The translations under genes and the position numbers were made by a program. A model generated the notes under the pieces. It was given only the letters and a program-made list of their open reading frames with translations. It made no database searches and had not been told where the DNA came from. A DNA stretch of 64,000 bases from an uncultured bacterium (lineage in GTDB: Bacteria > Desulfobacterota > JADFVX01), in assembly GCA_965372635.1 (NCBI GenBank), contig CBDVDA010000001.1, positions 2,860 through 66,859 on the forward strand, read 5' to 3'. Positions 35,733 through 57,933 of this stretch are shown here, in pieces (the stretch's first letter is position 1; every line of letters begins with the position of its first letter).

Positions 35733-35769
35733 GAAAAATGAAGTGTAGTGTTATGGCAGAGCCTGGCCA

Positions 35770-36891: not shown

Positions 36892-37388
36892 TGCAGCCTA
36901 TAACAAGGCAGGGTATTTTGACTTTGATGGTATGTTCAGTTATTTTTTTTGGTTGCTCCGGAGGAGACCATAAATTCGGAAATGTTCATCGAGAGAGCAG
37001 TCTCTCTCCCGGAACGGATGGACTAAGAGAAAAGATAAATCCGCATCGTGGAAAACATTGCCTGAAATGTCATGTCACAGATGGAAATGAATTGTTTGAC
37101 CTGAGAAAAAAGAAAGGGCGTCAGGATTTTTCACCAGAAACTAACTTTCTCAAGGCAAACTTAAATAAATTATGCGCTTCCTGTCATGATAAGAAAAAAG
37201 GCGACCACCCGGTGGGTGCCGCTCCGGGAATAAACAGGCTCGATCTTCCACTGGATGAAAAAGGTAAAATAAACTGCGCTGCAACCTGTCACGATGTACA
37301 TATAAGCAATGAAAATATTTCAGGGGTAAAGAAAGGCTTGCTCCGGGCGCCCGCAGAAAAGTTATGTTTATCATGTCATGATGTTTGA
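36891..37388 (+). CDS. Small multiheme c-type cytochrome (3 CXXCH plus one CX3CH)
   Basis: CLKCH, CASCH, CAATCH, CLSCH. Signal peptide with a possible lipobox (FFGCS). Confidence 0.75.
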   Translation: MQPITRQGILTLMVCSVIFFGCSGGDHKFGNVHRESSLSPGTDGLREKINPHRGKHCLKCHVTDGNELFDLRKKKGRQDFSPETNFLKANLNKLCASCHDKKKGDHPVGAAPGINRLDLPLDEKGKINCAATCHDVHISNENISGVKKGLLRAPAEKLCLSCHDV

Positions 37389-38642: not shown

Positions 38643-38653
38643 CAGAGTAGATA

Positions 38654-40366: not shown

Positions 40367-40377
40367 AGATAATATCC

Positions 40378-41268: not shown

Positions 41269-41302
41269 TGTTCTACTTGAATTTTTAACATAAATATTTG
41301 GA

Positions 41303-41869
41303 ATGATTTCTTTTAACCTGGCCACATACGAATATACAGACAAGAGGGTAGCCCTCCTGATAGCGGTTTTTATTTCTTGCACCTTGGTTTTATTTGCCGG
41401 CTACAATTACATAGTTTACGAAAAATCAAAGGTGCAATCTGATCGTGCCCTGAAAGAGGTAAAAAAAATACAAAAAGATATCTCTCTTATTAAAAAACAA
41501 ATCGAGGAAAGCAAAAAAGGGAAAGACAGCGCCATCGGAGGACGTTATGAAGAGAAGCTTTCGGATAAGATACTCTGGCTAAATGAAATTATAGGAAGAA
41601 AAGCATTTTCCTGGAGTCAATTGTTGTATTCTCTGGAGAAGGCGTCCCCTCCTCGTATCGCAATTAAAACAATAAGACCAAATTTTTCCGGAAAAAAGAT
41701 TAGAATCATCGGCCAAGCGAAAGATGTGGCTGCTATTACAACCTTTGTAGATAGTCTTCAGGGGACTAAATATATTACGAAAAGTTTTCTCTTGAAAGAG
41801 AATATTGTCATTGTAGAAAAAAAATATGAAGCCGTTGATTTTGAAATTGAATGTGAAGGAAATTTTTGA
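41303..41869 (+). CDS. PilN-like bitopic inner-membrane protein
   Basis: N-terminal TM (LLIAVFISCTLVLFAGYNYIVY) followed by a coiled-coil. 188 aa. Confidence 0.55.
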   Translation: MISFNLATYEYTDKRVALLIAVFISCTLVLFAGYNYIVYEKSKVQSDRALKEVKKIQKDISLIKKQIEESKKGKDSAIGGRYEEKLSDKILWLNEIIGRKAFSWSQLLYSLEKASPPRIAIKTIRPNFSGKKIRIIGQAKDVAAITTFVDSLQGTKYITKSFLLKENIVIVEKKYEAVDFEIECEGNF

Positions 41870-42429
41870 GAATGTTACAGTCGGCACAAAAATATTTTAA
41901 TGAAAACAGGGGAGGATACAGCACAGCGCTATTACTTCTTCTTGCCAATATAATTTTTTATTTTGCCATTGTTGCACCCAACTCGACGAGAATAGAACAG
42001 TCAAAGCTGGAATATTTTAACCTCAGAAAATCGCACGCGAAAATAGAAAACGAACTTCTGGAAACGAAAGCGCGTATAATCAATATCGGCGCTATGGAAA
42101 CCGATATAAAGCAATTTCTGGGAGAACTGCCCACACCCTCGGCCATGACCGGACTCGGGCGGGCGATTCACAAGCTAGCGAAAAAAAACAGGTTGGAAAT
42201 GAGATCGGTCAAGTATTCACTCCCTCAAAAGAAGAAGGAGGACATTCTTGTCTATGCCGTTTCACTCCCTGTAACCGGCAGCTATAAACAGGTCAGGCGT
42301 TTCATCTACCACCTTGAGAAAATGCCTTATCTTATGACCATAGACAACCTCAATCTGTCTGCCAGTAAAGGCAATAAAGTTTCTTTGAACCTGAATATTT
42401 CCTTTTATTTCAAGGCGGCAAAAGGATGA
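41866..42429 (+). CDS. PilO/GspM-like bitopic inner-membrane protein
   Basis: TM (ALLLLLANIIFYFAIVAP), then coiled-coil and a ferredoxin-like C-terminus. Overlaps the previous stop. Confidence 0.55.
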   Translation: MRMLQSAQKYFNENRGGYSTALLLLLANIIFYFAIVAPNSTRIEQSKLEYFNLRKSHAKIENELLETKARIINIGAMETDIKQFLGELPTPSAMTGLGRAIHKLAKKNRLEMRSVKYSLPQKKKEDILVYAVSLPVTGSYKQVRRFIYHLEKMPYLMTIDNLNLSASKGNKVSLNLNISFYFKAAKG

Positions 42430-43214
42430 AAAAGGAACCGGTTATTCTTGCGGCACTTTTGATCATTTTAGTTGCAGTTTTTATGAGCAATATACAGGGC
42501 TCGAAAGAAAGACGGATTGGAGAACTTACATTCAAAACGGGCACGCAAACTTTGGAAAGCGAAAATATAAAAAAAAGTGAGGGCGAAGGTTCCCTCCGCA
42601 TCGATAAGAAAAATTTTCCACCCAAACGAGCGTCTTTTAAACTTGGGAATCAAAATATATTTCGACCGCTTCTTTATGTGACGCGGTCGGCGCCTGCCCC
42701 GGCAATTACACAATCCGTGCCCCCTATCATGGTATCAACCCCTAATCTCACAGTTTTTGTAGGAATAGACGCCGAGGTTCCCGTAACAAATGCACAGGGA
42801 ACTCTAAGTGTTGTTTTCAATCCCGACGGAATAGGCGCAGCCAGCGGCACATCATCTCCCCTCACTTTTTCCTGTCTTGTAACGGGTCGTACCGTGGCGA
42901 CTATATCCGATGGAAATAGTTCGGTTACTCTTAATCTGGACTGCGACCTCAGGCCTCCGGAAAAGAAACTGGCCAGCTTTATCTTTCTTGGTTTTTTGGA
43001 GTCGGAGAAGGAAAAGACGATCTTTTTGTCGAAGGATGGAGAGATATTTGTTGTCAAGAGAGGGGATACCCTCGTGAAAAAGAGTGCTACTATTCCGCAG
43101 GATTATGTGGTAAAAATAATAACCGATGAAAAAGTAGTCATTTCATCGTCTGACGGGTCTGATTTAATGGAAATCAGCCTTATTGAAAATGAGCCTCTTC
43201 TCAGGAACAAATAG
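42426..43214 (+). CDS. PilP/GspC-like periplasmic secretin-interacting protein
   Basis: N-terminal TM/signal. C-terminal beta-domain with a SFIFLGFL...IFVVKRGDTLV...YVVKII pattern reminiscent of PilP. Confidence 0.5.
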   Translation: MKKEPVILAALLIILVAVFMSNIQGSKERRIGELTFKTGTQTLESENIKKSEGEGSLRIDKKNFPPKRASFKLGNQNIFRPLLYVTRSAPAPAITQSVPPIMVSTPNLTVFVGIDAEVPVTNAQGTLSVVFNPDGIGAASGTSSPLTFSCLVTGRTVATISDGNSSVTLNLDCDLRPPEKKLASFIFLGFLESEKEKTIFLSKDGEIFVVKRGDTLVKKSATIPQDYVVKIITDEKVVISSSDGSDLMEISLIENEPLLRNK

Positions 43215-43230
43215 GAAGGAGATATTTCAG

Positions 43231-45573
43231 ATGTTTTTCAGAACAGATAGTGCAAAGAAAATAACACTATTTTTAATTATTGCTCTCACGTTGGCCGGGT
43301 GCTCTACGATGAAGATAAAGACGGCAATGAGAGATGGGGATACGCTGGCATTGCAGGAACGGTGGGACGAGGCTCTGGACAGATACCTGGAGGTTGCGGA
43401 ACAAATGCCGCAAGACAAAGAATACCGACTCAAGGTGGAAAAAGCCAAGTATGAAGCGTCCCTTATCCATATAAAAAAGGGGGAGGACCTGCTAGGCAAA
43501 AAAGATTATGACAGGGCGCTGCTGGAATTTCAGGTGGCAGCAATGCTTAATCCATCGCTCAGAAAGGCGAAAGATCTCGGAGCCAGGGCAAAAAAGCAAA
43601 AAGACGCTGATTATTATTACAGAACGGGACTCACCTTTATTGAATCGAACAAAAAAAATGAGGCGCGGGCGGCCTTTAAAAAGGTGCTCTTTCTCGACCC
43701 CAAACGTGATGATGCGGCAACGGCGCTTGAAAAACTGAAAAAAGAGAGAAAAACGGTTGTCGGCGGCTATGAATTAAACCTGAAAAGTGATAAGCCGATT
43801 ACGTTAAAATTCAAAAGTACGGCCATTACGGATGTTTTTGACATTATTTCCAAACTCTCGGGCATCAACTTTATTCTCGATGAGGGGGTCAAAAGGAAGA
43901 AAGCCACCCTCTATATCGAGGATGCAACCTTCGAACAGGCACTCGACCTTGTGCTGATGACGAATCGGCTTTTCAAGAAGGTAGTCAACGAAAATACAAT
44001 CATCATAATTCCTAATACCAAACAAAAACGGCAGCAGTATGAGGATCTTATCATCCATACTTTTTATCTTTCCAGCCTGGATGCAAAAAAAGCGGTCAAC
44101 CTCTTGAGGACATTGCTCCAGATCAAAAGCATCTATGTAAATGAAATGTTGAATACCATCGTTGTCAGGGATACCCCCGAAGTCATTGCCTTGGCGGAAA
44201 AAGTGCTGCAAGCGAATGATCAACCCGATGCGGAGATAATGCTGGAAGTTGAAATCCTCGAAGTGCAAAAGAGTGCTACGGAAAACCTGGGATTGGATTT
44301 GTCACCTGATACTATCACAGCAGGTCTGAGAGAGGGGGGCGTTAGTGGTAGTAAAGAACTCACATATAATACTCTGAAAAAATTTTCAAGGTCGGATATG
44401 CTGTTCAGTATTCCTGATTTTGTAATCAATCTCCAGAAAAGTCAAGGCAAGGCGAACCTTCTCGCCAATCCCAGGATCAGGGTTGCAAACAAGAAAAAGG
44501 CAAAGATACATGTTGGTGACAGGGTACCTACAATTACTTCGACGGTTAATAACAATGTTGTCACTGAAAATGTAACCTATGTGGATGTAGGTGTTAAGCT
44601 CAATATAGAACCGACCATTCACAACGATAATGATGTAACGCTGAAGATAAAAATGGAAATTAGTTCCGTAGGAGAAACCATTAAAACAAGTCAAAGCACG
44701 GTGTTTAGAATAGGAACGCGGAATGCGGAAACAGAACTCCGTTTGCATGATGGTGAGACACAGGTAATCGGGGGGTTGATAAGTGAAACAGAAAGGACTT
44801 CTACTGTTAAAGTACCCTTTTTTGGTGAAATCCCTGTCCTTGGAAGATTATTTTCATCTTCCAATGATACAAAAGAAAAAACAGAGATCGTTCTTACTAT
44901 AACACCTCACATCGTTAGAGAAAGAAAGATTGCCGATCCGGAATTTTTGAATATTTGGTCCGGCAAGGCCCAGGAACTCTCGTCAAAACCGCCCTTCTCC
45001 AGCTTCATCGAAGAAGAGGCGTTTCTTGACTTACCGCCTCCCGGGGCGGGTTTGATTGGTACAGAGCCACTTGGGACGATGGGCGCTATTGCCGTTCCTC
45101 ACAGTCCGGAAGAAGAGAATCAGGAAGCGGAGATCGCACCGGCACCTGTTGGCGACGGGGGGGGCGCATCGCTCATCATTGACGGCCCTGTTTCCGTTAA
45201 CAATAATGATGAATTTAATCTCGTTGTTTCTCTTAGCAGTTCCGAAAATGTAACCAGTGTACCCTTTTATCTCAGATACGATGCGGCGCTTATAAGCTTT
45301 ATTCGGGCCACCGAAGGGGATTTCTTAAAAAGAGACGGTAAATCGACGGCATTCATGTTTAATGATGATAAGAAAAGGGGCAGGGTTATTGTTGGCAGCT
45401 CAAGGCTGGGTGATCAGATCGGAATAAACGGCCAGGGAACGGTTATGACCGTAGCATTCAAGGCAATCAAGGCTGGGAGAGCAAAGTTTCACCTGGAGAA
45501 TTACAGGATTACCGGAACGGAGGGAAAAGTCATCCAGACCACGGTTACTGAAAAAAGCGTCCAAATTTTATGA
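43231..45573 (+). CDS. Outer-membrane secretin (GspD/PilQ family) fused to an N-terminal lipoprotein TPR module and carrying a C-terminal extra beta-domain
   Basis: Lipoprotein signal LTLAGCST. About 150 aa of TPR-like helices. Secretin N-domain (ITDVFDIISKLSGINFILDE), secretin signature (VPFFGEIPVLGRLF), then about 230 aa of beta-rich extension. Start set at MFFRTDSAKK (43231). Confidence 0.8.
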   Translation: MFFRTDSAKKITLFLIIALTLAGCSTMKIKTAMRDGDTLALQERWDEALDRYLEVAEQMPQDKEYRLKVEKAKYEASLIHIKKGEDLLGKKDYDRALLEFQVAAMLNPSLRKAKDLGARAKKQKDADYYYRTGLTFIESNKKNEARAAFKKVLFLDPKRDDAATALEKLKKERKTVVGGYELNLKSDKPITLKFKSTAITDVFDIISKLSGINFILDEGVKRKKATLYIEDATFEQALDLVLMTNRLFKKVVNENTIIIIPNTKQKRQQYEDLIIHTFYLSSLDAKKAVNLLRTLLQIKSIYVNEMLNTIVVRDTPEVIALAEKVLQANDQPDAEIMLEVEILEVQKSATENLGLDLSPDTITAGLREGGVSGSKELTYNTLKKFSRSDMLFSIPDFVINLQKSQGKANLLANPRIRVANKKKAKIHVGDRVPTITSTVNNNVVTENVTYVDVGVKLNIEPTIHNDNDVTLKIKMEISSVGETIKTSQSTVFRIGTRNAETELRLHDGETQVIGGLISETERTSTVKVPFFGEIPVLGRLFSSSNDTKEKTEIVLTITPHIVRERKIADPEFLNIWSGKAQELSSKPPFSSFIEEEAFLDLPPPGAGLIGTEPLGTMGAIAVPHSPEEENQEAEIAPAPVGDGGGASLIIDGPVSVNNNDEFNLVVSLSSSENVTSVPFYLRYDAALISFIRATEGDFLKRDGKSTAFMFNDDKKRGRVIVGSSRLGDQIGINGQGTVMTVAFKAIKAGRAKFHLENYRITGTEGKVIQTTVTEKSVQIL

Positions 45574-45587
45574 AGATAGGGCCAAAA

Positions 45588-46067
45588 ATGGTCTGTCGTA
45601 AGGGAAAAGGGGTCACGTTTATTGAGCTTTTGATCGTTCTTACAATACTTTCTCTTCTTGCCTCAGTTGTTTTACCCCTCGGCCAGATTAGCAAAAAAAG
45701 GGCGAAAGAATATGAGTTGAAGAGCCGCCTTAGAACCATCCGATCTGCCATCGATGCCTATCAGAAAGTCTATGATGAAAAGAGGATAATGAATGTAATC
45801 GGGCGCTCGGGATATCCTGAGACATTGCTGGAACTGGTTGAAGGGATGGAAGATGTAAGAGACCCGGAAGGGAAGATGATCTACTTTTTGAGACGGCTGC
45901 CGCGTGACCCGATGAATAACAATGAATTCCTTGCCCCTGAAGAGACATGGGAAACGAGGGCCTATGAAGGAGAACCCGATGATTTTTCTGGTGGCGACGA
46001 TGTTTTTGATATTCGTTCAATGAGTTATGATATTGCACTGGACGGTACTGAGTACAAGGAGTGGTAA
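45588..46067 (+). CDS. GspG-like pseudopilin (prepilin leader, Glu5, LPRDP motif)
   Basis: MVCRKGKG|VTFIELLIVLTILSLLASVV, later RLPRDPMNN. 160 aa. Confidence 0.7.
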   Translation: MVCRKGKGVTFIELLIVLTILSLLASVVLPLGQISKKRAKEYELKSRLRTIRSAIDAYQKVYDEKRIMNVIGRSGYPETLLELVEGMEDVRDPEGKMIYFLRRLPRDPMNNNEFLAPEETWETRAYEGEPDDFSGGDDVFDIRSMSYDIALDGTEYKEW

Positions 46068-46070
46068 CCG

Positions 46071-46466
46071 GTGGCGAAACTAAAAAAGAAGTCAGGGGAA
46101 GAGAAGGGGTTCACCCTCATAGAGCTACTGATCGTAATGAGCATCGTTGCCATCCTGTTGACAATTGCACAGCCCATGTACAGGGAATCAACGATCAAGG
46201 CGAGGGAAACCGTTTTAATGGAAAACCTCTTTACCCTACGGGATGTTATCGACCAGTTTTACGTCGATAAAAGCCGCTATCCTGACTCTCTAGAGGAACT
46301 GACCGACCTCGGTTATATAAGAACACTTCCCAAAGACCCCTTTACCCGCTCTTCCGAAAGCTGGCAATTAATCCCCCCCTCTGAAGGTTATGAAGGCGGT
46401 GTCTATGATGTACACAGCGGCAGTGATTTGGTTGCACTTAACGGCACCCCTTATAATGAGTGGTAA
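46071..46466 (+). CDS. gspG: Major pseudopilin GspG
   Basis: GTG start. KG|FTLIELLIVMSIVAILLTIAQPMY and TLPKDPF motif. 131 aa. Confidence 0.8.
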   Translation: MAKLKKKSGEEKGFTLIELLIVMSIVAILLTIAQPMYRESTIKARETVLMENLFTLRDVIDQFYVDKSRYPDSLEELTDLGYIRTLPKDPFTRSSESWQLIPPSEGYEGGVYDVHSGSDLVALNGTPYNEW

Positions 46467-46537
46467 AAAATCCCCGGCAGGCATTTTGTGTCGTGAAAAT
46501 AGAATAACTTTCCCTAATATTTTTAGTTGTTCAAGCA

Positions 46538-47026
46538 ATGGCTGGAGTGGTGAAAAGAGCAACGTCTGAAGAAGGTTTTACTTATATACATCTCCTCCTC
46601 ATGGTTGTAGTCATGGGAATATCCCTCTCCGCAATGGGCCGTTACTGGAGCTATCTCGATAAAAAGGACAAGGAGGCGGAATTGCTGTTCAGGGGAGACC
46701 AGTATATGAGGGCCATAGACTCCTATTTCAAACGCTCACACGGCAAAGTCAATATCTACCCGAAAAAATTGGAAGACCTGTTAAAAGACCCGAGGAGCCT
46801 TGCGCCGAGGCGACATCTTCGCAAGATTTATAAAGATCCCATGACGGGAGAGGCTGACTGGGTTCCCATTCTTGACCCGGCAAGCAAGCGGATAAAAGGC
46901 GTCAAAAGCCGCAGTGAAGAGATGCCGCTGAAAACAGACGGGTTTCCAAAAATCTATCAAGCCTTTAAAGATAAAGGGAGTTATAGTGACTGGGTCTTTG
47001 TCCACAAGCCCGGGATGAAATGGTAG
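46538..47026 (+). CDS. Minor pseudopilin-like protein that lacks Glu5
   Basis: EEG|FTYIHLLLMVVVMGISLSAMG. Prepilin-type N-terminus with His at +5. 162 aa. Confidence 0.55.
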   Translation: MAGVVKRATSEEGFTYIHLLLMVVVMGISLSAMGRYWSYLDKKDKEAELLFRGDQYMRAIDSYFKRSHGKVNIYPKKLEDLLKDPRSLAPRRHLRKIYKDPMTGEADWVPILDPASKRIKGVKSRSEEMPLKTDGFPKIYQAFKDKGSYSDWVFVHKPGMKW

Positions 47027-47065: not shown

Positions 47066-48547
47066 TTGAAAATGATTCTAAAGAGTCTTATAACTAAGAT
47101 CATTGCTTCGACGACACTAATCCTTTTCATTGCCATAGGTATCTCCTGGTGGGTACACATGCGTATCTACGAAGAGCAGTTGATGGACGAGGTGAGAGAC
47201 AGGGTTGAGACGGTTCTCGATACAGCCGAGACGAGTATTTCCAAGTCGATGCGTATCGGTAAAACCGACGACACCCAAAATATACTCGAACTCGTCAATA
47301 GCCACATGAAGGAAAAGTCCGTAGTAAGAATCATTCACCCTGACGGCATCATCATTAAATCTACAAACCTGAAAGAAACGGGCAAGAGGATACCTAACAT
47401 CTTCATTAATGCCTATCGTGCGGGAAAGAAGGAGATCATTGTAGCGCACCTCGGAGAGTCGAGGGCGCTCAGCATGACTATGCCGATTAAAAATATACGC
47501 GAATGTCATCTCTGCCATGGTGAGAGCAGCAGCAGTATCGGGATTCTCAACGTCGAGCTTTCTCTTGAAGAGACCGATATCAAGCTCGGCGAGGCGAGGC
47601 GACGATCCAATATTTCGGCCATTTTCATAAGCCTGATCATTTCGCTCTTTATTTTTTTGCTGCTCTTTTGGATTGTGATCAAGCCTATTTCAAAGTTGAG
47701 TAAAAAAATGGCCTTTGCCGAAGAGGGAGACCTGACAGTTCGAAGCGGGCTGAAGAAAAGTGATGAAATTGGTCGGCTTGGGCGGAGTTTCGATTCAATG
47801 ATTGAAAAACTTCAGGATACCAGGACGGAACTGGAAAAATACCATTTCCAGCAGATGGAGCGAGCCGACAGACTCGCCTCGGTGGGAGAGTTGGCCTCGG
47901 GCATTGCCCATGAGATAAAAAACCCGCTGGCCGGGATAGCCGGCGCCGTCCAGATCCTGGCGCGCGACTTTAAGGGAGATGAGAAAAAGAGCTTTGTCGT
48001 AAAGGAGATTTTGCAGCAGATCGGCAGGCTGGACAAGTCCGTCAAGGACCTGCTAAACTATGCCAGTCCGTCAATGTCCGAATTTGTCAGGGGGGACGTG
48101 AATGCCATCATTGAGAAGGCGCTCTTCTTTGTTACCCAGCAGCCGAATGCCAAGGGAATAAAGTTTGTAAGAGAACTGGACACCGCCCTTCCCGGCGTCA
48201 GGCTGGATGACAAGCAGATTCAACAAGTTCTTTTGAACCTCTTTTTGAATGCCCTCAATGCCATGGAAAGAAAGGGCAGCCTCAGGATTTCAACCTCCGG
48301 GCAGGAAGATTCGTTCATCAATATCCGGGTGGAAGACAACGGAAAAGGTATTTCGAAGAAAAATATGCCCAAGCTTTTTATCCCATTTTATACGTCGAGG
48401 GAGGAAGGGACCGGGCTTGGTCTCTCTATCAGTAAGCGGATTGTGGAACAGCACGGCGGCAGCCTGAAAATAGAGAGCAAGGTCGGCAAAGGAACCGTCG
48501 TCGTCTTGTCACTGCCTATAGACGGGCCGGAAAAGGCACAGGATTAG
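47066..48547 (+). CDS. Sensor histidine kinase with a periplasmic c-type-heme (CXXCH) sensor domain
   Basis: TM1, a periplasmic domain of about 150 aa containing RECHLCHGESS, TM2, HAMP, HisKA (ELASGIAHEIKNPLAGI) and HATPase_c (GTGLGLSI). Confidence 0.85.
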   Translation: MKMILKSLITKIIASTTLILFIAIGISWWVHMRIYEEQLMDEVRDRVETVLDTAETSISKSMRIGKTDDTQNILELVNSHMKEKSVVRIIHPDGIIIKSTNLKETGKRIPNIFINAYRAGKKEIIVAHLGESRALSMTMPIKNIRECHLCHGESSSSIGILNVELSLEETDIKLGEARRRSNISAIFISLIISLFIFLLLFWIVIKPISKLSKKMAFAEEGDLTVRSGLKKSDEIGRLGRSFDSMIEKLQDTRTELEKYHFQQMERADRLASVGELASGIAHEIKNPLAGIAGAVQILARDFKGDEKKSFVVKEILQQIGRLDKSVKDLLNYASPSMSEFVRGDVNAIIEKALFFVTQQPNAKGIKFVRELDTALPGVRLDDKQIQQVLLNLFLNALNAMERKGSLRISTSGQEDSFINIRVEDNGKGISKKNMPKLFIPFYTSREEGTGLGLSISKRIVEQHGGSLKIESKVGKGTVVVLSLPIDGPEKAQD

Positions 48548-48551
48548 ACCG

Positions 48552-49928
48552 ATGAAAAAATTTAAGATACTTGTTGTTGATGATGAAGAATTGATCCGGT
48601 GGTCTCTGGAACAGAATCTGAAGGAAGAGGGGTACGCGACGCTCACTGCGGCAACGGGGGAAGAAGCGCTAAAGCTTGTCCGCGACGAGCTTCCCGATCT
48701 GGTTTTTCTCGATCTCCAACTCCCGGGGATCGGCGGCATGGAAGTCCTTCCGAAGATCAAGGAAATCAACAAAGATATTATTGTTATAATCATCACGGCC
48801 CTCGGTGTGGTCGAGATGGTTGTAAGGGCGATGAAGCTCGGAGCATACGACTATATCAACAAGCCCTTCAATCTCGATGAAGTCTCCATCATTGTAGAAA
48901 AGGCGATGGAAACGGTTAAGTTGAGGAAGGAGGTTGCCACCCTCCGGGCCGAACAGAGCAAGCAGTTCAACCCCGTGAACATCATCGGCATCGATCCGAG
49001 GATGAAGCAGGTCATGACTATGGTGGAAAAGGTGGCCAAGAGCGATTCCACCACCGTTCTCATTACGGGTGAGAGCGGCACGGGGAAAGAGTTGATCGCC
49101 AAGTCGATCCACAATCACAGCGCACGCGCCAGCGAACCTTTTATGGCGGTAAACTGTGCCGCACTGCCGGAAAACCTCCTGGAGAGTGAACTCCTGGGTC
49201 ATGAGCGAGGGGCCTTCACCGACGCGAAGAGCATGAAAAAAGGACTCTTCGAGATGGCCGACGGCGGGACGCTCTTCCTGGACGAAATCGGTGATATGCC
49301 GCTTGGTATGCAGGCAAAGATTTTGCGGGTTTTGGAAGATAAAATAATAAGGCGACTCGGGGGAGTGAAGGACATTCTCGTCGATGTGAGGATTATTTCG
49401 GCGACGAACAAGGACATCCTGGCTGCCATTGAAGAAGGCGCCTTCAGGAGCGACCTTTATTACCGTCTTCAGGTTATTCCTATAAAGCTGGCGCCTCTAA
49501 GAGAACGTCCGGGCGATATAATGCCGCTGGTGCTGCACTTCATTGAACAGTTTAACGCCGAATTCAACAAGGGGGTTAAAGGGGTTTCCAAGATGGCGGA
49601 GAGGTTTCTCGGGGACTATTCCTGGCCCGGCAACGTGAGAGAACTCAGAAACGTCATAGAGAGGGCGATTATCCTCGAAAACGAGGATACCCTTCTCGTT
49701 GAACACCTGCCTCTCGAAATTGTCGCCATGGGAAAGAAGCGTGTCCCCCAGAGCTCTCTCGAAATCACCCTTCCCGCCGGTGGAATCTCCATGGAGGCTG
49801 TTGAGAAGAATCTCATTCAGCAGGCCCTTTCCATCACAGGCGGGAACCAGTCCAAAGCCGCGAGAAAAGTGGGGCTCGGCATCGATGCCTTCAGGTACCG
49901 GATGAAAAAATTCGGTTTGCTCCAATAA
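48552..49928 (+). CDS. Sigma54-dependent response regulator (NtrC/PilR family: REC, AAA+ sigma54-activator, HTH)
   Basis: REC domain, GESGTGKE Walker A, GAFTDA, ESELFGHE-like motif and a C-terminal Fis-type HTH. Confidence 0.88.
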   Translation: MKKFKILVVDDEELIRWSLEQNLKEEGYATLTAATGEEALKLVRDELPDLVFLDLQLPGIGGMEVLPKIKEINKDIIVIIITALGVVEMVVRAMKLGAYDYINKPFNLDEVSIIVEKAMETVKLRKEVATLRAEQSKQFNPVNIIGIDPRMKQVMTMVEKVAKSDSTTVLITGESGTGKELIAKSIHNHSARASEPFMAVNCAALPENLLESELLGHERGAFTDAKSMKKGLFEMADGGTLFLDEIGDMPLGMQAKILRVLEDKIIRRLGGVKDILVDVRIISATNKDILAAIEEGAFRSDLYYRLQVIPIKLAPLRERPGDIMPLVLHFIEQFNAEFNKGVKGVSKMAERFLGDYSWPGNVRELRNVIERAIILENEDTLLVEHLPLEIVAMGKKRVPQSSLEITLPAGGISMEAVEKNLIQQALSITGGNQSKAARKVGLGIDAFRYRMKKFGLLQ

Positions 49929-50004
49929 CCTGTAACCCGATCTGACTCCACTTCATACTTTTCTCCACCAGGAAGCCTATTTTTTAGGCATTTACTTCTT
50001 CTGA

Positions 50005-50046
50005 CGACACATATTGCTCTTTTTGCGACACATATTGCTCTTTTTG
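50005..50046 (+). promoter_or_regulatory. Perfect 21-bp tandem direct repeat (CGACACATATTGCTCTTTTTG x2) upstream of the cytochrome genes. Candidate regulator binding site.
   Basis: Exact duplication read directly in the sequence, 115 nt upstream of the 50161 ATG and 77 nt downstream of the sigma54 regulator gene. A sigma70-like TTGCAA-N17-TATATT lies at 50057-50085. Confidence 0.45.
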
Positions 50047-50160
50047 CTTGAAGTTGTTGCAATTTATTTCGTAATATATATATTATGTGAGAGTCAGGGG
50101 TCTACTTTATCACCTATAGATAATTTCAATAATTCCAAATGAATGTGAGGAGTCATTATT

Positions 50161-50742
50161 ATGAGGAGTCGATTGATAGTATTGCTGGGTGCGTTACAGG
50201 TTTATTTGTTTGCAGGCACTCTCTATGCAGCGCCGGGCTACGTAGGCGCGGAGGGGTGCAAATGCCATAAGGCAGAAATTGCCGACTGGGAGCGAAGCGG
50301 TCACGGAAAGGCATTTAATCTGCTGAAACCGGGTAAAAAGAAATCGAAAAAGAAAAAGGCGGGGCTCGACCCCAAAAAGGATTATACGCGCGATGAAAAA
50401 TGTCTAAAATGCCATGTTACCGGCAAGGGCGAGGAGGGAGGGTTCAGGGATTTTGCCTCCACGCCCGGAATGGCCGGCGTGGGGTGCGAATCGTGCCACG
50501 GCCCCGGCAGTGAATACAGGTCTCTCCATAAGGAAAAAACGACGGCATTTTCCCGCGATGAAGCGAAGGCACTCGGCGAAACCTACGGCTCGCTCGACGC
50601 GGGGGTCTGTGAAACTTGCCACGTAAATAAGGACAACCCCTTTAAGCCGGAGATGAACAAGAAATATAAATTCGACCACGGGGCGGCGCTCAAAAAGAAT
50701 CGGGAGTTTCACGATTATTACGAACTGGAGGGGCAGCATTGA
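50161..50742 (+). CDS. Periplasmic tetraheme c-type cytochrome (NrfA/c554-superfamily-like first heme with W..SGH)
   Basis: Signal peptide. CKCHK, CLKCH, CESCH, CETCH. GCKCHKAEIADWERSGH motif. Confidence 0.8.
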   Translation: MRSRLIVLLGALQVYLFAGTLYAAPGYVGAEGCKCHKAEIADWERSGHGKAFNLLKPGKKKSKKKKAGLDPKKDYTRDEKCLKCHVTGKGEEGGFRDFASTPGMAGVGCESCHGPGSEYRSLHKEKTTAFSRDEAKALGETYGSLDAGVCETCHVNKDNPFKPEMNKKYKFDHGAALKKNREFHDYYELEGQH

Positions 50743-50805: not shown

Positions 50806-51396
50806 ATGACTCTTTCGGACATTGGCGCAGGAACCTTTGCCTTGAGTACGCTCTTATTATTTTTCGCCGGAGAGGGGTTGACGTCGGAAGCGAAATACGT
50901 TGGCGCCGAAGGATGCCAGTGCCATAGATCTGAAATCTCCGACTGGAAACGGAGTAAACACGCCAAGGCCTTCGATCTCCTCTTGCCCGGCAAGAGGAAG
51001 CTGGCGAAGAAGAGAGTTGGGCTGAAACCGGATAAGGATTACTCCCGCGACAGGAAGTGCATAAAATGCCATGTCGTTGGTTATCGGAAGGGAGGGTTTG
51101 TCAACATCAATTTCACACCCCAGTTTGCAGGGGTGGGGTGTGAGTCGTGTCACGGACCGGGAAGCAAGTACCGGGTCCTGCACGGGAAAAGGCCGCGCAC
51201 ATTTAAAAAGGCGGAAGTGAAGGCGCTCGGCCAGCACTACGGTTCCCTCGACGAGGCGGTTTGCAGGCGTTGCCACGAAAACGGGGAGAGCCCCTTTAAA
51301 CGCAGCATTGATGAAAAATACCGTTTCCATCTTAAGACGGAACTTTCGAAGACGAAGGCCTTTCATCGATACTATCCTTTGAAAGCGAAACATTAA
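50806..51396 (+). CDS. Periplasmic tetraheme c-type cytochrome, paralog of the 50161 gene
   Basis: CQCHR, CIKCH, CESCH, CRRCH. Collinear with the 50161 product at about 55% identity by eye. Confidence 0.8.
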   Translation: MTLSDIGAGTFALSTLLLFFAGEGLTSEAKYVGAEGCQCHRSEISDWKRSKHAKAFDLLLPGKRKLAKKRVGLKPDKDYSRDRKCIKCHVVGYRKGGFVNINFTPQFAGVGCESCHGPGSKYRVLHGKRPRTFKKAEVKALGQHYGSLDEAVCRRCHENGESPFKRSIDEKYRFHLKTELSKTKAFHRYYPLKAKH

Positions 51397-51453: not shown

Positions 51454-53760
51454 ATGAAACTGAGCACAAAATTTATGAGCGCTGTCGGCCTCATTCTCCT
51501 CCTTCTCTCCATCGGCGATGTCTGGCTGAATATGAGAAAAGAGAGGGCCATCGTCACCAAAGACATCAAAAAGTGGACCTTCATCTTTGCGGAAAATGTG
51601 CGGGTTTCTCTGAACACCCTCATGCGGGAAGGGAAGATGGACATCCGTTTTGCCATGTTCGACGGCATGAAATCGGAGATCAAGGGGCTAGAAAACGTCC
51701 GGGTCATCCGGTCTCCCAAGGTGAATGAACTTTTCATGCTTGCCAACGAAAAGGACGTTATCCCCAGGGAAGAAAGCCGGATCGAGAGTATGGCGGAAGA
51801 GATTGCTGAACTGAAGGATGAGTTGCAGGACGCCCGTGACGCCGACGAGAGAAGCGACCTGAAGGAGGAGATTTCGGACCTTCTCCGCGACGTGGAAAAG
51901 AGCAAAAAAATTATCGAGGCGGCGAAGACGCCAAAGGAGATCGATAAAAGGGAACGCCCGCTGGACAACCTGGACAGGCAGGCACTCAAAACCGGCGAGA
52001 TTCTGTATGACATAGATTTTGAGGGAGACAAGGCCCGGGTTATCGTTCCCTACAAAATCCAGAAAAAGGGGTGCTCCGAGACGAGCGGCTGCCACCGCTA
52101 CGGAAAGGAAGGGGACGTGCTCGGCGGCATCAACATCGAGTTCTCCCTCACCGAAGTGAACGAAGAAATAATGAATAACAACATTACCGCTTCGCTCATC
52201 GGGGTTTTGAAGCTCGTCATTATTCTGGTGACGCTCCTCGTTATTCTCACCGTTTCCATTACGCGACCCGTAAAGAAGGTTGGCAAAATGGTCAAGGCGA
52301 TTGCCGCCGGGAAGGGGGATCTCACCCAGCGCGTCACTGTCACTTCCGAAGATGAAGTGGGAATGCTCAGCCGATGGTTCAATCTTTTCATGGACGGCTT
52401 GCAGGACATCATCAAGGATGTTTTTGCCACCAGCCAGGATATTTCTACCGTATCGAAAAAAGTAAATCAGGCGTCGGTAACGCTCAAAAATTCAAGCCAT
52501 GCACAGCGTGAAGCGATGGACGAGACTTCGTCTTCTATCCAGGAAATGAGTTCATCCATCCAGTCTATCGCCCATGAGACGGGAAACCAGTTAAAATCGA
52601 CGGAAGATGCCTCTGCCTCGGTACTGGAAATGCTGTCGTCCATTTCTGAAGTGGCCGAGCATGTGGACCAGCTTGTGAACTCGGCCGATAAAACCGCCTC
52701 ATCGGTCCACCAGATTGTTGCCTCCCTGCAACAGGTCGGCTCCCACGTGGACGACCTTTTTGGTGAGACGGCGGACGTCGTTTCCGCCGCCACCGAGATC
52801 GAAGCGGCGGTAAAAGAGGTGACCATCCACGCGAAGGAAAAGGCGCGTTTGGCCGAAAAGGTGCGGGAAAATGCCTCGTCCTTCGGCATGGCGGCCATCA
52901 AGCAGACGGCACGCGGCATGGAGAAGATCAAGAAAGAGGTAACGGCTACGGCGAGCGTCATCGACCGGCTGGAAGAGCGATCCGACGAAATCGGCCGGAT
53001 TATCAACGTCATCGAGGAGGTGGCGGAGACGACCAACCTCCTCTCGCTGAATGCCGCTATCATCGCCGCCCAGGCGGGAGAGCAGGGCAGGGGCTTTGCC
53101 GTCGTAGCCGACGAGGTGAAGGAGTTGGCGCGGAAAACGGCCTCTTCCACCAAAGAGATCACACGCCTCATCAGCCAGGTTCAGCTGGAAGTTGGGGATG
53201 CCAAGAAATCGATGGCAAATAGCTCTGCCAGTGTCGATGACGGGGTCAAGTTCTCCAAAGAGGCGAGCGGGGCTCTCTCCAAGATAATCGAAAGCGCCGA
53301 ATCATCGCTGGAGATGGCGAAGAAGGTGGAGGTGGCAACAGGTGAGCAGGCACGGGTCCTTGGCCATGTGATGGCGTCTATCCAGAAGATCAACGATATG
53401 GTAGAGGAGATCAAGCGCGCTACGGACGAACAGAAGACCGCCTCCGGTCATATACTGGAAGCTACGGAGGAAATGCGAGATTCCACACAGATGGTGCGCC
53501 GCTCCACGCAGGAGCAGTCGAGGGAGAGCGATTACATAACCAAAATCATTGCCGACGTTACGAACAAGATGCACTCCATTGCAAAGGCGACGTCGGAACA
53601 GCAGAGCGCCTCGGAAATCATCGTCAAGGCCGTCGAGACGATGCGCGACGAGATCGAAAAAAACGTAGAACTCTCCGTGCATCTGGAAGGCGTGGTGAAG
53701 GAACTGGACGAGCATCAGGAGCATCTCACCGACAAGGTAGGCTCTTTTAAGGTTGAATAA
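51454..53760 (+). CDS. Methyl-accepting chemotaxis protein with a periplasmic sensor domain homologous to the kinase sensor (variant heme motif GCSETSGCH)
   Basis: TM, a periplasmic domain of about 200 aa, TM2, HAMP and an MCP signalling domain ([26 protein letters not shown]). The sensor segment C...[19 protein letters not shown] aligns with the kinase segment CHLCHGESSSSIGILNVELSL. Confidence 0.85.
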
Positions 53761-53853
53761 CCCCGGTCACCGGTCGGGGATGGTACTGAAGGTGAACCAA
53801 TGAAACATGTTTTTTCAACTAGGGTGGAATACATCTTGAGGAGGAAAGAGAGA

Positions 53854-54759
53854 ATGAAGGGAGTAATGAGTGCGCTGTTGCTGGCGGCTGTTTTTCTGAT
53901 TATGCCGGCATCGGTGCAGGCAGAGGCTAACTATCTCGGCGAAAAGGAGTGTTATGCCTGCCACAAAGACATAAAAAAGGTTTATCTCGAAAACAGACAC
54001 GGGAAGGTATTCACCCGAAATCCAAAAAATGATTTACAGGCGCGGGGCTGCGAGGCGTGTCACGGCGCGGGCGGAGAACATAAGGCTGCGGCGGACCGCC
54101 TCGATAAGGGAGAAAAGGTTCCCCTCGAAATAGAAGGTTTTAAAAGAGGTGCTGAAAATGTCTCCGGCATGAACGGACGGTGTCTCACTTGCCACGAGAA
54201 GGGTGCGCGGACACACTGGCGGGGAAGCAGTCATGAGCGCGAGGAACTTGGTTGTGTTGATTGCCACACCATCCACGCAGAGGGGCGCATAGACGGTACA
54301 GAAGTCTGCCTCCGCTGCCACGTAGAACGCCGCGCGCAACTCCAGCGTTCATCTCATCTCCCATTACGGGAGGGAAAGGTGAAATGTTCGAGTTGCCATA
54401 ACCCCCACGGGAGCCTCGGTCCGTCACTCCTCAAGACCGCCTCTATAAACGAAAACTGCTACAGTTGCCACCAGGAAAAACGGGGGCCGCTGCTCTGGGA
54501 GCACGCCCCGGTACGGGAAAACTGCACCAACTGCCACAATCCCCACGGCTCCAACTACGAGGCCCTTCTCAAGATGAAGGTTCCCTATCTCTGTAAAAGC
54601 TGCCATATGGAGCAGTACCATCCAAGCTCTCTCTACGACGGTTCACAGGTCATCGCAGGCGGCGGAAATGACCGCCACACTATCGGCAGGGGATGTCTCA
54701 ATTGTCATCCCCAGGTCCACGGGTCGAACCACCCGTCGGGCGCCAGGATGCAGAGGTGA
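53854..54759 (+). CDS. Periplasmic decaheme c-type cytochrome of the MtrA/MtoA/PioA family
   Basis: Signal peptide. Ten CXXCH motifs, including CHNPHG-type motifs characteristic of the MtrA family. GGAGG RBS before the ATG at 53854. Confidence 0.85.
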   Translation: MKGVMSALLLAAVFLIMPASVQAEANYLGEKECYACHKDIKKVYLENRHGKVFTRNPKNDLQARGCEACHGAGGEHKAAADRLDKGEKVPLEIEGFKRGAENVSGMNGRCLTCHEKGARTHWRGSSHEREELGCVDCHTIHAEGRIDGTEVCLRCHVERRAQLQRSSHLPLREGKVKCSSCHNPHGSLGPSLLKTASINENCYSCHQEKRGPLLWEHAPVRENCTNCHNPHGSNYEALLKMKVPYLCKSCHMEQYHPSSLYDGSQVIAGGGNDRHTIGRGCLNCHPQVHGSNHPSGARMQR

Positions 54760-54800
54760 TCGCCATGAAAAGTATGAGAGAGAGTTTTGAGGAGGCGAAA

Positions 54801-57008
54801 ATGAACAGCAAATCATTACTTATGGTGGGATTGGTTCTGGCGATACTGATCGCTGCGCCGGGCGTTTCACTAGCGAAGGACGGCTATTCGGGCAGCGTCA
54901 CGGTAGGGGTCGAACGGACCGATCAGGACAAACCGTCGTTCAAGTCGGGGGAATACGACGGCGTCGATGACGACAGCACCCATTTTCTCGGCGCCGCCGA
55001 AGTGACCTACGAGAAAGAAAGCTACTATATGGATTTCGTAGCCGAAGAGGTGGGCCACGACAGCCGGTCACTCGGCGTTGAGAGTGGTCGCTATGGCACC
55101 TACCGCTTTTACATCGAATACGATCAGCTCCCCCACCTGGTAAACGACACAGGGGTGACCCCCTTTTTAGGGGCAGGGAGCGGCAACCTGACGCTGCCCG
55201 CTTTCTTCAACGCCACCGCGTTGACGACGAACATGAACCTGACTAACTTGAACCGCGTCGATCTGGAGACGGAGCGGAAGACCCTCACCGTCGGCTACGG
55301 GCGGGCATTGAGGGAAGGACTCGATTTTTCCATCCAGTTCAAGCGGGAAGAAAAAGAGGGGATCAAGGAAATCTCAGGCGTCGTTGGATACCACGGTGGG
55401 AATGGCCGCTCGGCCATCATGCCCGAACCGGTGGATTACAAAACGGATGAACTGAGAGTTTCCTTCGAGTATAACACGGAAAAGGGGAGTGCCAGGCTGG
55501 AGTATTTCCTATCCCGCTTCGAGAACAAGGTACCGACTCTTACTTGGGAGAATATTTATGGCACAGTCATTGGTGGTGGCCCGCCTTATCAGACGGGCGC
55601 CAATTCGCTCATTTCGCTGCCGCCGGACAATGAGCACCAGAAGCTGAGCCTGTCGGGCGCTTATAACCTGACCGATGTGACCCGTCTTTCCATGATCGCC
55701 GAACTCGGCAGGATGGAGCAGGATGAGGACCTCCTCCCCTACTCCACTAATTTCTATGCTACAGCGTTACCGAGGGCCAACGCTCAGGCGGAGATCGAAA
55801 CGACCCACTTCGGCCTGAACCTCACGTCCCGGCCCCGGCCCAAATTGAATGTGACGGCAAAATACCGCTATTACGAGACGAAGAACAAGACGCCGGTGGA
55901 CCTTTTCCAATATGTAAAAAATGACAACGCCGCGGCAGCAGGCCTTCAACCAGCCATTGCTGAAGAAACCGCTGTTTATAACAGTCCCTACGATTATAAA
56001 CAGCAGCAGTTGAAACTGGATGGAAACTACCGGCTGGCGAAGACGACGACGGTGAAACTCGGCGTGGAACGTGAGGAGATCGACCGAAGTCACCGTGAGG
56101 TGGAGAAGACGGAGGAAAATACCTATCGGGCGGGCGTCAAGGTGCGGGTGCCACAGGCGCTTACCCTTAACATAAACGCCATGCACGCAAGACGGGAGGC
56201 CGATGGTGGATATGATGTGTTGCGCGTTTATGAAGAGCACCACACATCGGGTTACCTTGCAGGCGTATCCAATCCGCTTGAGTATTTTGACAATCATCCC
56301 GACATGCGCAAATACGATATAGCCGACAGGCAGCGGGACCGTGTTGGGATCAACATGACCGTTTTTGCCGGGCCGGAGACGACCGTCGGCCTCTACCTGA
56401 ACCGGACGGAGGATGATTACGACCGTTCCCTCTTCGGGCTCCAGGAGAGCGACAACGACAGCTACACCGTCGATATGACACGGAGCCTGTCGCGCCACGC
56501 TTCTCTCTACGCCTTCTACACCAACGAGCAGTCGGAGATGCTACAGGCGAGCCGGGATTATGAGGGTGGTGCCCCCGGCACGAAGGCTGCCCAGGCATGG
56601 GATGCGACGCGCGACTGGACGGCTAACCATGACGATAAAAACGACACACTCGGTGTGGGCGCCACGCTGAGTTTCCTCAGTGATGACCTGACTGTGGACG
56701 CCAACTATAGCTATTCTTCGGCGGTGACGGATATCAGCTTTACGGCGGGAAGTGCGCTTCCGGTGCCCATCGATTTGCCGCAGCTTCAGACGAGGTTGAA
56801 CACGCTGGACGTGACGGGGCGCTACCGCTTCGACAAGCAGTTGACCCTCGGGGTCGGCTACAACTACGAGCGCTATCGGGCCGACAACTGGTCCACCGAC
56901 GGTTTCGATCCCGGAACGGCGACCATCCCGCTCGTGCTGACCATGACGGGAGGGGTGCCGGATTACGATGCACACCTCTTCAGGTTATTTGCGAGTTACG
57001 ATTTTTAG
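54801..57008 (+). CDS. Outer-membrane beta-barrel porin of the MtrB/MtoB/PioB family (partner of the decaheme cytochrome)
   Basis: Signal peptide MNSKSLLMVGLVLAILIAAPGVSLA. About 735 aa, Y/T/N/G-rich with alternating beta-strand pattern and a C-terminal ...YDF. Immediately downstream of the decaheme gene. Confidence 0.75.
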   Translation: MNSKSLLMVGLVLAILIAAPGVSLAKDGYSGSVTVGVERTDQDKPSFKSGEYDGVDDDSTHFLGAAEVTYEKESYYMDFVAEEVGHDSRSLGVESGRYGTYRFYIEYDQLPHLVNDTGVTPFLGAGSGNLTLPAFFNATALTTNMNLTNLNRVDLETERKTLTVGYGRALREGLDFSIQFKREEKEGIKEISGVVGYHGGNGRSAIMPEPVDYKTDELRVSFEYNTEKGSARLEYFLSRFENKVPTLTWENIYGTVIGGGPPYQTGANSLISLPPDNEHQKLSLSGAYNLTDVTRLSMIAELGRMEQDEDLLPYSTNFYATALPRANAQAEIETTHFGLNLTSRPRPKLNVTAKYRYYETKNKTPVDLFQYVKNDNAAAAGLQPAIAEETAVYNSPYDYKQQQLKLDGNYRLAKTTTVKLGVEREEIDRSHREVEKTEENTYRAGVKVRVPQALTLNINAMHARREADGGYDVLRVYEEHHTSGYLAGVSNPLEYFDNHPDMRKYDIADRQRDRVGINMTVFAGPETTVGLYLNRTEDDYDRSLFGLQESDNDSYTVDMTRSLSRHASLYAFYTNEQSEMLQASRDYEGGAPGTKAAQAWDATRDWTANHDDKNDTLGVGATLSFLSDDLTVDANYSYSSAVTDISFTAGSALPVPIDLPQLQTRLNTLDVTGRYRFDKQLTLGVGYNYERYRADNWSTDGFDPGTATIPLVLTMTGGVPDYDAHLFRLFASYDF

Positions 57009-57023: not shown

Positions 57024-57062
57024 TGAAAAAAAGGCGGCCCCTTAAAAAGGCCGCCTTTTTTA
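57024..57062. terminator. Bidirectional rho-independent terminator (A7-GGCGGCC-ccttaaaaa-GGCCGCC-T7)
   Basis: Perfect 7-bp GC stem flanked by an A-run and a T-run, between the convergent porin and ubiG genes. Confidence 0.75.
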
Positions 57063-57083: not shown

Positions 57084-57758
57084 CTATTCCTTGATGCCGT
57101 AACCGATGTAGTTGATGTCGGTGGAGTTGGAAATGGAAAACTGCCAGTTGAGGGGGTTGAAGGTCATCCCCTTCACCTCCTTCACCGCAATGCCGTTTTC
57201 CTTTAGGAGTGTGGCGAGCCTGCTCGGTTTGATGAACCGGTCGAAGTTGTGGGTGCCGCGTCCCACGAAATTGAGCACGTTCTCAGCCATGAAGATGGCG
57301 AAAAACCACGCCTTGGCCGTTTTGTTGATTGTCTCGAAGAGGTAGTGGCCGCCTGCCTTCACTTTTGCAGAAGACTCGGAAATCATCCCAGCAAGGTCGT
57401 CTACGTGCTCCAGCATCTCGGCACAGACGACAATATCGAAATCGTTCTCCTCTATCTCTGAAAGGCCACAGTTCCGGTAGTCAATCTCTAACCCGCTTTC
57501 GTCCGCATGTTTTTTAGCCGCCTCGATGGCGACAGGCGAAAGGTCCACGCCGGTAACGACGGCCCCTTTAGCGGCGAAGGCCTCCGAAAGAAGCCCGCCC
57601 CCGCAGCCGATGTCGAGCACCTTTTTCCCTTTCAGGTTGCCGAGCCTGCTGTTGAAATAATCGAACCGGACGGGATTGATCATATGGAGCGCGCCCATCT
57701 TTCCCTCCGGGTTCCACCAGTCCTTGCCCATCTTGTTGAATTTTTCCGTTTCCGCCAT
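57084..57758 (-). CDS. ubiG: Ubiquinone biosynthesis O-methyltransferase UbiG-like (class I SAM-dependent methyltransferase)
   Basis: WWNPEGKMGALHMINPVRFDYF...VLDIGCGGGLLSE...MLEHV, collinear with E. coli UbiG. AGGAA RBS before the ATG at 57758. Confidence 0.75.
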   Translation of the reverse strand: MAETEKFNKMGKDWWNPEGKMGALHMINPVRFDYFNSRLGNLKGKKVLDIGCGGGLLSEAFAAKGAVVTGVDLSPVAIEAAKKHADESGLEIDYRNCGLSEIEENDFDIVVCAEMLEHVDDLAGMISESSAKVKAGGHYLFETINKTAKAWFFAIFMAENVLNFVGRGTHNFDRFIKPSRLATLLKENGIAVKEVKGMTFNPLNWQFSISNSTDINYIGYGIKE

Positions 57759-57933
57759 AGATCGTTCCTGCATTTTGATTTTAAGATGTGCTATAATAAT
57801 GCGCGTCAAGCGAAACTGCAAGTTTTTATCAACCCCTTAGCGTCAGCCCATTTGGCCGCCAATCTTAAAGGGACTTGAAAAGTCGAAAAAACGTTGACAT
57901 ATCAATTGCATTGTTGTAATTTTCAGATTATAT

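Follow-up and report, generated by a model that had tools for sequence, protein, structure and literature searches.

The stretch of DNA analysed here (64 kb from contig CBDVDA010000001.1 of an uncultured bacterium; hereafter the window) carries at positions 53854–57008 two adjacent plus-strand genes, mtrA and mtrB. Judging from the sequences and a predicted fold, the pair very probably encodes a true two-gene porin-cytochrome conduit of the MtrAB/MtoAB/PioAB family, a judgement that concerns identity and architecture and does not extend to the direction of electron flow or to the roles of the partner proteins. The two genes are separated by 41 bp, and each has its own ribosome-binding site. 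They are preceded, in the same orientation, by two genes for cytochrome c554-type tetrahaem proteins and one for a methyl-accepting chemotaxis protein (MCP).

The product of mtrA (53854–54759) is a periplasmic decahaem c-type cytochrome of the MtrA/MtoA/DmsE family. An earlier note on this DNA had described a 319-residue protein with ten CXXCH motifs, including some of the CHNPHG type. That length belongs to the maximal open reading frame (ORF) from the first ATG (53800–54759); the ATG at 53854 is preceded by a GAGGAGG ribosome-binding site, and the likely protein has 301 residues, identical to an existing database gene call. It has a Sec-type signal peptide (…SVQA, followed by EANY) and exactly ten CXXCH motifs, the first at residue 33 and two of them of the CHNPHG type, which together contain all 20 cysteines of the protein. 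MtrA passes the DmsE/MtrA decahaem family model TIGR03508 with 250.8 bits (cut-off 192.2) and does not group with unrelated cytochromes of the NrfB type, the outcome that the earlier note had named as fatal to its assignment. It aligns over its full length with MtrA of Shewanella baltica OS185 (6R2Q chain A; 43% identity, E 6.5e-68), with the ten haem motifs aligned.

The second gene, mtrB (54801–57008), encodes an outer-membrane β-barrel of the MtrB/MtoB/PioB family. Its ATG at 54801 is likewise preceded by GAGGAGG, and the likely protein of 735 residues, which is present in the protein database, is shorter than the 771 residues of the maximal ORF (54693–57008). As the earlier note had it, this is a signal-bearing protein of about 735 residues, rich in Tyr, Gly and Asn (6.4%, 8.0% and 5.3%, respectively; also rich in Asp and Thr) and ending in an aromatic residue (…SYDF); the signal peptide reads …VSLA, followed by KDGY. 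MtrB has no cysteines at all and hence lacks an N-terminal CXXC motif. It scores 403.5 bits against the MtrB/PioB model TIGR03509 (cut-off 240) and 469.6 bits against PF11854 (cut-off 23), and is 25% identical to S. baltica MtrB of 6R2Q over residues 28–733 (E 8e-40). An AlphaFold2 model, built with an alignment of 24 homologues as input (mean pLDDT 80.5, pTM 0.77), contains 26 long strands, and its top Foldseek match in the PDB is 6r2q_B (E 1.2e-43, TM 0.79/0.89), with 22-strand TonB-dependent transporters following at E 3e-10. The β-barrel prediction that the earlier note had proposed as a check thus came out as a 26-strand barrel.

The family scores of both proteins are well above the curated cut-offs, far beyond chance, and the placement in the MtrAB/MtoAB/PioAB family that the earlier note had suggested is borne out by TIGR03508, TIGR03509, PF11854 and the 6R2Q alignments. 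The pair shares with Shewanella MtrCAB the core of a decahaem cytochrome and a 26-strand barrel, both chains being aligned full length. The Geobacter pair GSU2203/GSU2204, also a decahaem protein and a barrel-like protein and from a related host lineage, comprises distant homologues; against the corresponding models NF041028 and NF041027 the window pair scores 222.6 (cut-off 325) and 83 (cut-off 350), well below both. TIGR03508 is a "DmsE family" model that covers DmsE as well as MtrA, which leaves some room for a module of the DmsEF type, in which the pair would feed a specific terminal reductase on the outer face (dimethyl sulfoxide or iodate, DmsAB) and not minerals. We consider this highly improbable, as no molybdopterin oxidoreductase or other terminal enzyme is found in the operon, among the scanned window ORFs or in the flanks of the related loci described below.

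The five genes, c554a (50161–50742), c554b (50806–51396), the MCP gene (51454–53760), mtrA and mtrB, all on the plus strand, look like one operon, based on the short gaps between them (41–93 bp), a promoter-like site in the 232-bp gap that separates c554a from an upstream response regulator gene, and a terminator after mtrB. No unassigned ORF lies within the block. The promoter-like site (50057–50086, plus strand) is a σ70-like match (TTGCAA-16/18-TATATT/TATTAT, 9 of 12 positions) and is a candidate cassette promoter by consensus match only. Directly upstream of it, in the same gap, are two tandem 21-nt direct repeats (49997–50038; TCTTCTGACGACACATATTGC and TCTTTTTGCGACACATATTGC, 86% identical) that could be a regulator binding site. 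The predicted terminator (57027–57062) is bidirectional and intrinsic, with a strong hairpin between an A-run and a U-run (AAAAAAAGGCGGCC...GGCCGCCUUUUUU); a 96-nt stretch here folds at -27.3 kcal/mol (z -3.2), and the gene that follows is convergent (57084–57821, minus strand). No inner-membrane quinol/quinone oxidoreductase is encoded in the operon or nearby, no genes of the CymA, FccA or STC type are found near the window mtrAB, and a search for an inner-membrane partner in the flanks of the related loci returned unrelated housekeeping genes only.

A conduit without MtrC

The window contains six ORFs with two or more CXXCH motifs. None comes near the cut-off of 209.3 of TIGR03507, the OmcA/MtrC model: the c554-type pair gave 17.9 and 17.5 bits and the other four gave no match, in agreement with the earlier note, which had remarked on the missing outer partner. 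As a positive control, decahaem proteins of 773–793 residues encoded upstream of mtrA in gammaproteobacterial relatives (loci L023 and L027) scored 505–525 bits with the same model. The window differs from Shewanella MtrCAB in having no MtrC/OmcA partner in 64 kb and no CXXC in MtrB, and in the addition of a chemoreceptor and c554-type cytochromes to the operon.

When 83 MtrB sequences were placed in a neighbour-joining tree (S. baltica as the root, without bootstraps or MtoA/PioA anchor sequences), MtrC-linked clades separated from MtrC-less ones. One group is alphaproteobacterial and has mtrAB only; a second, also with mtrAB only, consists of Nitrospinota metagenome-assembled genomes (MAGs) and the clade of the window; in the third, which is gamma- and betaproteobacterial, mtrAB usually follows a true mtrC. 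Nearly all sampled members of the MtrC-linked group have the N-terminal CXXC in MtrB, and the window's clade lacks it. Fe(III) reduction by S. oneidensis depends on C42 of this motif (PMC12175506). The absence of MtrC thus holds for the operon and for the whole clade.

Among the named systems, the MtoAB-MtoD-CymA(ImoA) clusters of Sideroxydans lithotrophicus ES-1 and Gallionella have the same two-gene core without MtrC and also include a periplasmic cytochrome partner (PMC10654088, PMC8805035). However, MtoD of Sideroxydans is a monohaem protein, whereas the window partner is a c554-type tetrahaem in two copies with a CXCH first motif. The window cluster has no NapC/NirT-type tetrahaem, the sole Cytochrom_NNT match among the window cytochromes being a weak local one in the decahaem protein. 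The hosts also differ: Sideroxydans and Gallionella are betaproteobacterial iron oxidisers, and the window host is a Desulfuromonadia-like deltaproteobacterium. PioABC of Rhodopseudomonas palustris TIE-1 is an MtrAB-homologous conduit without MtrC that is used for electron uptake. PioA has a haem-free N-terminal extension of ∼270 residues (PMC10654088), compared to a total of 301 residues for the window MtrA, and PioABC includes the high-potential iron-sulfur protein PioC, a type of gene that the window operon does not have. In the tree, alphaproteobacterial MtrB forms a clade separate from that of the window.

The conserved cassette and its cytochrome and chemoreceptor partners

Standard annotation pipelines would already name mtrA and mtrB as members of a well-known family, and the novelty of the locus lies in the clade-specific cassette in which they occur. 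A genome scan for relatives (12-sequence alignment) and a reverse search from the c554-type proteins, which added two further cassettes (L091 and L092), placed MtrAB and c554 together at 12 or more independent loci of related, uncultured bacteria (the window, L001, L002/L003, L010, L011, L012, L016, L084, L088, L089, L091 and L092), at least 10 of which also contain the chemoreceptor. The MtrB proteins of these loci are 39–54% identical to that of the window, and the nearest ones are from MAGs labelled Deltaproteobacteria, Thermodesulfobacteriota, Nitrospirae, Nitrospinota and Ca. Manganitrophus. Gene order and flanking genes vary, L088 matching the window in its order, and the flanks are unrelated housekeeping genes (aconitase, ATP synthase, CheB, citrate synthase). 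The closest relative, L001 (MtrB 53% identical), has the order c554-MCP-mtrA-mtrB-c554 and shares with the window the genes that come next (methyltransferase, BamD, a tetratricopeptide repeat (TPR) protein and ferrochelatase); upstream of its cassette there is no kinase, response regulator or secretion island. The conserved unit is mtrA, mtrB, c554 and the MCP gene, without the secretion island that precedes the operon in the window.

The two c554-type genes had been missed in the earlier note. Their products carry signal peptides, are 51% identical to each other and score 83.8 (c554a) and 83.1 (c554b) bits against PF13435 (cut-off 20.8). They align over their whole length with cytochrome c554 of Nitrosomonas europaea (CycA; 1BVB/1FT5; E 3e-31, 112 bits), with the four haem sites in the same order. 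The first motif is CSSCH in the N. europaea protein, whereas the window copies have CKCH (c554a, residues 33–36) and CQCH (c554b, residues 37–40), with a one-residue gap inside the motif, each followed by three CXXCH. They are not orthologues of N. europaea c554, since their scores of 133.7 and 123.9 bits fall below the cut-off of 400 of its equivalog model, and their setting is different too: they adjoin MtrAB, whereas N. europaea c554 adjoins hydroxylamine oxidoreductase. The operon encodes no redox proteins besides the conduit itself and these soluble tetrahaems with their signal peptides, which makes the tetrahaems candidates for dedicated periplasmic electron shuttles that would connect the conduit with the respiratory chain.

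The CXCH first motif is conserved in every MtrAB-linked c554 homologue checked and occurs at the window, L001, L002, L010, L011, L012, L084, L088, L089, L091–L094 and L113. In the wider c554 family it was present in 6 of 150 cluster representatives, five of which were among the top seven matches. In the reverse search MtrAB was found beside 2 of the 3–4 evaluable CXCH-type loci, compared to 0 of 72 CXXCH-type loci, many of whose contigs are short. The open-access literature searched contains no description of a CXCH haem-attachment motif, the only match being an off-subject one on the evolution of the cytochrome bc1 Qo motif, and none of a link of c554 or an MCP to MtoAB or MtrAB.

The MCP consists of a large periplasmic domain followed by HAMP (PF00672, 49.6 bits) and MCP signalling (PF00015, 138.9 bits) domains. 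Its sensor domain is encoded beside MtrAB at L001, L002, L010, L011, L012, L016, L084, L088, L091 and L092 (172–327 bits). The periplasmic domain contains just two cysteines, arranged as C207-x5-C213-H214 (CSETSGCH, 52072–52095), and this CX5CH is invariant across the cassette MCPs, with C-x8-CH in L010. A haem site of variant form, a disulfide or a metal site would each be conceivable here. The haem-c PAS-like sensors of Geobacter (GSU0935/GSU0582, 3B42) have CXXCH; the window MCP differs from them in its CX5CH and in a charged insert of ∼75 residues. The neighbouring kinase and the L004 MCP, whose sensors look unrelated, have a CXXCH at the corresponding position.

Several observations limit the case for a haem-sensing role and for a fixed cassette. 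The MCP sensor domain has no significant match in the PDB, including the known haem-c sensors and 3B42; a hidden Markov model of the CX5CH region gave no match to the kinase or to the L004 MCP, which is of the CXXCH type; and in hhalign comparisons only the N-terminal part, including the membrane segment, aligns (E 5e-4, probability 30%). Haem binding by the MCP thus stays putative; a coupling of the redox state of the conduit branch to motility is likewise a proposal. The earlier note had placed mtrAB directly after a redox-sensing chemoreceptor; the position stands, with the MCP gene directly upstream, but the redox-sensing part is unproven, the protein having a conserved CX5CH but no CXXCH, and no significant similarity to known haem-c sensors. 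The cassette is absent or different in L004–L008 and L090, which belong to the same clade, and CXCH-type c554 genes are also found away from MtrAB (L094).

These exceptions bear on whether the neighbourhood is coincidental, with MtrAB standing alone and the c554 and chemoreceptor genes functionally unrelated to it. Such a reading would account for the clade members that have no partners (L006, L008 and L090), for the CXCH-type c554 without MtrAB in L094 and for the fact that MCP genes are numerous in such genomes. It is hard to reconcile, however, with the presence of both partner families beside MtrAB in about 12 loci despite MtrB identities of 39–54%, varied gene order and unrelated flanks, with the conserved derived motifs (CXCH and CX5CH) that each partner family carries as its own, and with the lack of MtrAB at all 72 loci with ordinary c554-like genes. 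We therefore regard a chance association as quite unlikely.

Two related loci deserve separate mention. In the Nitrospirota MAG GCA_035655335.1 (L004 4419–5474, L005 3294–4322), an EB_dh protein (ethylbenzene dehydrogenase gamma-like, haem-b) replaces c554; its gene has mtrAB on one side and, on the other, the gene for an MCP whose sensor carries a CXXCH. An apparent MtrA-MtrB fusion in Ca. Manganitrophus sp. GAC4 (L013 8726–11872, CP114561.1) is likely a frameshift: the 1048-residue ORF combines an MtrA-like part with nine CXXCH motifs and an MtrB-like barrel, and we rejected the fusion because the sequence is garbled in the region where the tenth haem motif is expected.

Immediately upstream of the operon are a sensor histidine kinase with one periplasmic CXXCH (47066–48547, plus strand; HisKA, HATPase and HAMP domains) and, starting 4 bp after it, a paired σ54-dependent response regulator (48552–49928, plus strand; Response_reg, Sigma54_activat and HTH_8 domains). 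The periplasmic domain of the kinase matches 3B42 (GSU0935) weakly (E 0.006), with its CHLCH aligned to CQSCH, so that the CXXCH is in register with that of the Geobacter haem-c sensors; its score of 23.2 bits against PF21563 is below the cut-off of 27. A σ54 promoter that would tie the cassette to the adjacent regulator was sought and rejected (15 matches compared to 22 expected by chance, and no convincing -24/-12 element upstream of c554a). The gene pair is a neighbour of the cassette, the link not being conserved and regulation of the cassette by the regulator being unproven.

The upstream secretion island and other window genes

Further upstream, a set of genes resembling a type II secretion system (T2SS) or type IV pilus occupies 37431–47026. 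It includes GspF-, GspE-, PilM-, PilN- and PilO-like genes, three pseudopilin-like genes and a secretin of 796 residues with TPR repeats and a C-terminal cohesin domain. It is preceded (33798–37388) by a gene for an NHL-repeat protein with a lipobox-like signal and by three multihaem cytochromes (34938–37388) that contain, in order, four haem sites, seven CXXCH plus one CX3CH, and three CXXCH plus one CX3CH. The second of these, of 373 residues, scores 44.2 bits against PF22113, the MtrC/MtrF pentahaem domain (cut-off 30).

These genes raise the possibility of a split, non-orthologous analogue of MtrCAB, in which MtrAB would export respiratory electrons and the three cytochromes, surfaced via the T2SS-like machinery, would replace MtrC for Fe(III)/Mn(IV) reduction. 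The T2SS is needed to place MtrC and OmcA on the surface of Shewanella. Several features of the locus fit: a single strand carries, within ∼23 kb, the genes for the NHL protein and the cytochromes, the T2SS-like genes with their pseudopilins, the kinase-regulator pair and the cassette; lipobox-like signals are present on the NHL protein and on the 165-residue cytochrome; one cytochrome has the pentahaem-domain match above; the nearest named relatives of the host are metal reducers; and in L072, from an unrelated proteobacterial MAG, NHL and two island-cytochrome homologues (3704–10727) lie 1–8 kb downstream of MtrB. On the other hand, no island cytochrome reaches TIGR03507, MtrB lacks the CXXC tied to reduction in Shewanella, the island is absent beside the syntenic cassette of L001 and all other cassette loci, and its guanine-plus-cytosine (GC) content is 0.42–0.47, compared to 0.54–0.56 for mtrAB. 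On balance we consider this arrangement possible but rather unlikely.

The GC content of the island, clearly below that of its flanks, suggests that it was separately acquired. Because the island is not conserved beside the cassette and differs from it in GC, the tie between the two looks positional. The earlier note had put the conduit at the distal end of the secretion island; it does lie there, but a functional tie is not supported, as L001 keeps the cassette and the downstream genes without the island.

Two other genes of the window may be mentioned. A 412-residue protein, encoded beside a SCO1/SenC copper chaperone (6116–8089), is partly similar to cbb3-type oxidase subunit I (68 bits, cut-off 583); it may be a divergent member of the haem-copper oxidase family and may bear on O2 respiration by the host. 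A RES-domain protein, the toxin of RES-Xre type toxin-antitoxin pairs, is encoded at 19550–20392 in a stretch of lower GC.

Proposed electron flow through the conduit and its implications

By analogy with the crystal structure of the Shewanella Mtr complex, MtrA would leave the cytoplasm through Sec, mature in the periplasm and come to lie in the lumen of the 26-strand MtrB barrel, with its ten bis-His haems spanning the outer membrane as an insulated wire ∼8 nm long. Because there is no MtrC-type surface cytochrome, the outermost haem of MtrA may itself contact the extracellular substrate. On the inner side, the two c554-type proteins would carry electrons between the conduit and the inner-membrane chain, and the co-transcribed chemoreceptor may report on the state of this branch.

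The direction of flow is not derivable from sequence, as the earlier note had also held, and FeGenie files MtoAB as "possible oxidation/reduction" (PMC7005843). Phylogeny, which the earlier note had proposed as a route to the answer, would not settle the matter, because oxidising and reducing systems do not form separate clades (PMC8805035).

With these reservations, we lean slightly, at about even probability, towards electron uptake, in which Fe(II), Mn(II) or reduced minerals outside the cell would be oxidised. Uptake is favoured by the lack of MtrC from the two-gene system and of CXXC from MtrB, as well as by the weakly cbb3-like oxidase subunit that is encoded with SCO1 in another part of the window. 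In nitrifiers, electrons travel inwards through cytochrome c554. MAGs labelled Nitrospinota, Nitrospirota and Ca. Manganitrophus, lineages of nitrite and manganese oxidisers, contain the nearest MtrB clades, and the Nitrospinota homologues have been named MtoA (PMC11442690).

Outward reduction is somewhat less probable but has a considerable share of the remaining weight, with the rest falling to flow in both directions or to something else. The points that count for it, or that otherwise weaken the case for uptake, are the following. The UvrA protein of the host is 77–80% identical to MAG proteins and, among named organisms, closest to those of Desulfuromonas, Geobacter and Geotalea (71–72%), which suggests an uncultured relative of Desulfuromonadia; the Desulfuromonas/Geobacter lineage is known for outward metal reduction. 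The mtrAB locus is co-directional with the T2SS-like system and three multihaem cytochromes, one with an MtrC-type pentahaem domain, and the similar NHL/cytochrome set beside MtrB in L072 favours reduction. Magnetospirillum, with MtrAB only, reduces iron (PMC7005843). MtoA and PioA do not form function-specific clades (PMC8805035), and the MtrB tree, built by neighbour-joining without bootstraps, is coarse. Formation of the MtrA:MtrB complex, haem loading and the direction of flow are all predictions.

Combining these elements, the cassette could be a sensory-coupled conduit, in which the c554 shuttle with its CXCH haem would link MtrAB to the respiratory chain, the chemoreceptor with its CX5CH haem would read the redox state of the shuttle, and cells would swim to or from solid electron donors or acceptors. 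We consider this full scheme doubtful. If true, it would mean that a hard-wired "mineral taxis" or "electrotaxis" is common to uncultured bacteria labelled Desulfobacterota, Nitrospinota and Nitrospirota.

Through conduits of the MtrAB type, bacteria exchange electrons with minerals of iron and manganese, with electrodes and with partner cells. Metagenome analyses routinely file the two-gene forms under "possible iron oxidation/reduction", the direction not being distinguishable. The locus described here adds an uncultured Desulfuromonadia-like host to the list of two-gene conduits and points to a clade in which the conduit is accompanied by a periplasmic cytochrome and a chemoreceptor of its own. 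Should these partners not work as proposed, the locus would simply be a recognisable member of a well-known family. If they do, it would offer conduits without MtrC a candidate connection through the periplasm, give direct genetic access to the way in which bacteria locate insoluble redox substrates and, in the CXCH and CX5CH spacings, provide a probe of the limits of cytochrome c maturation.

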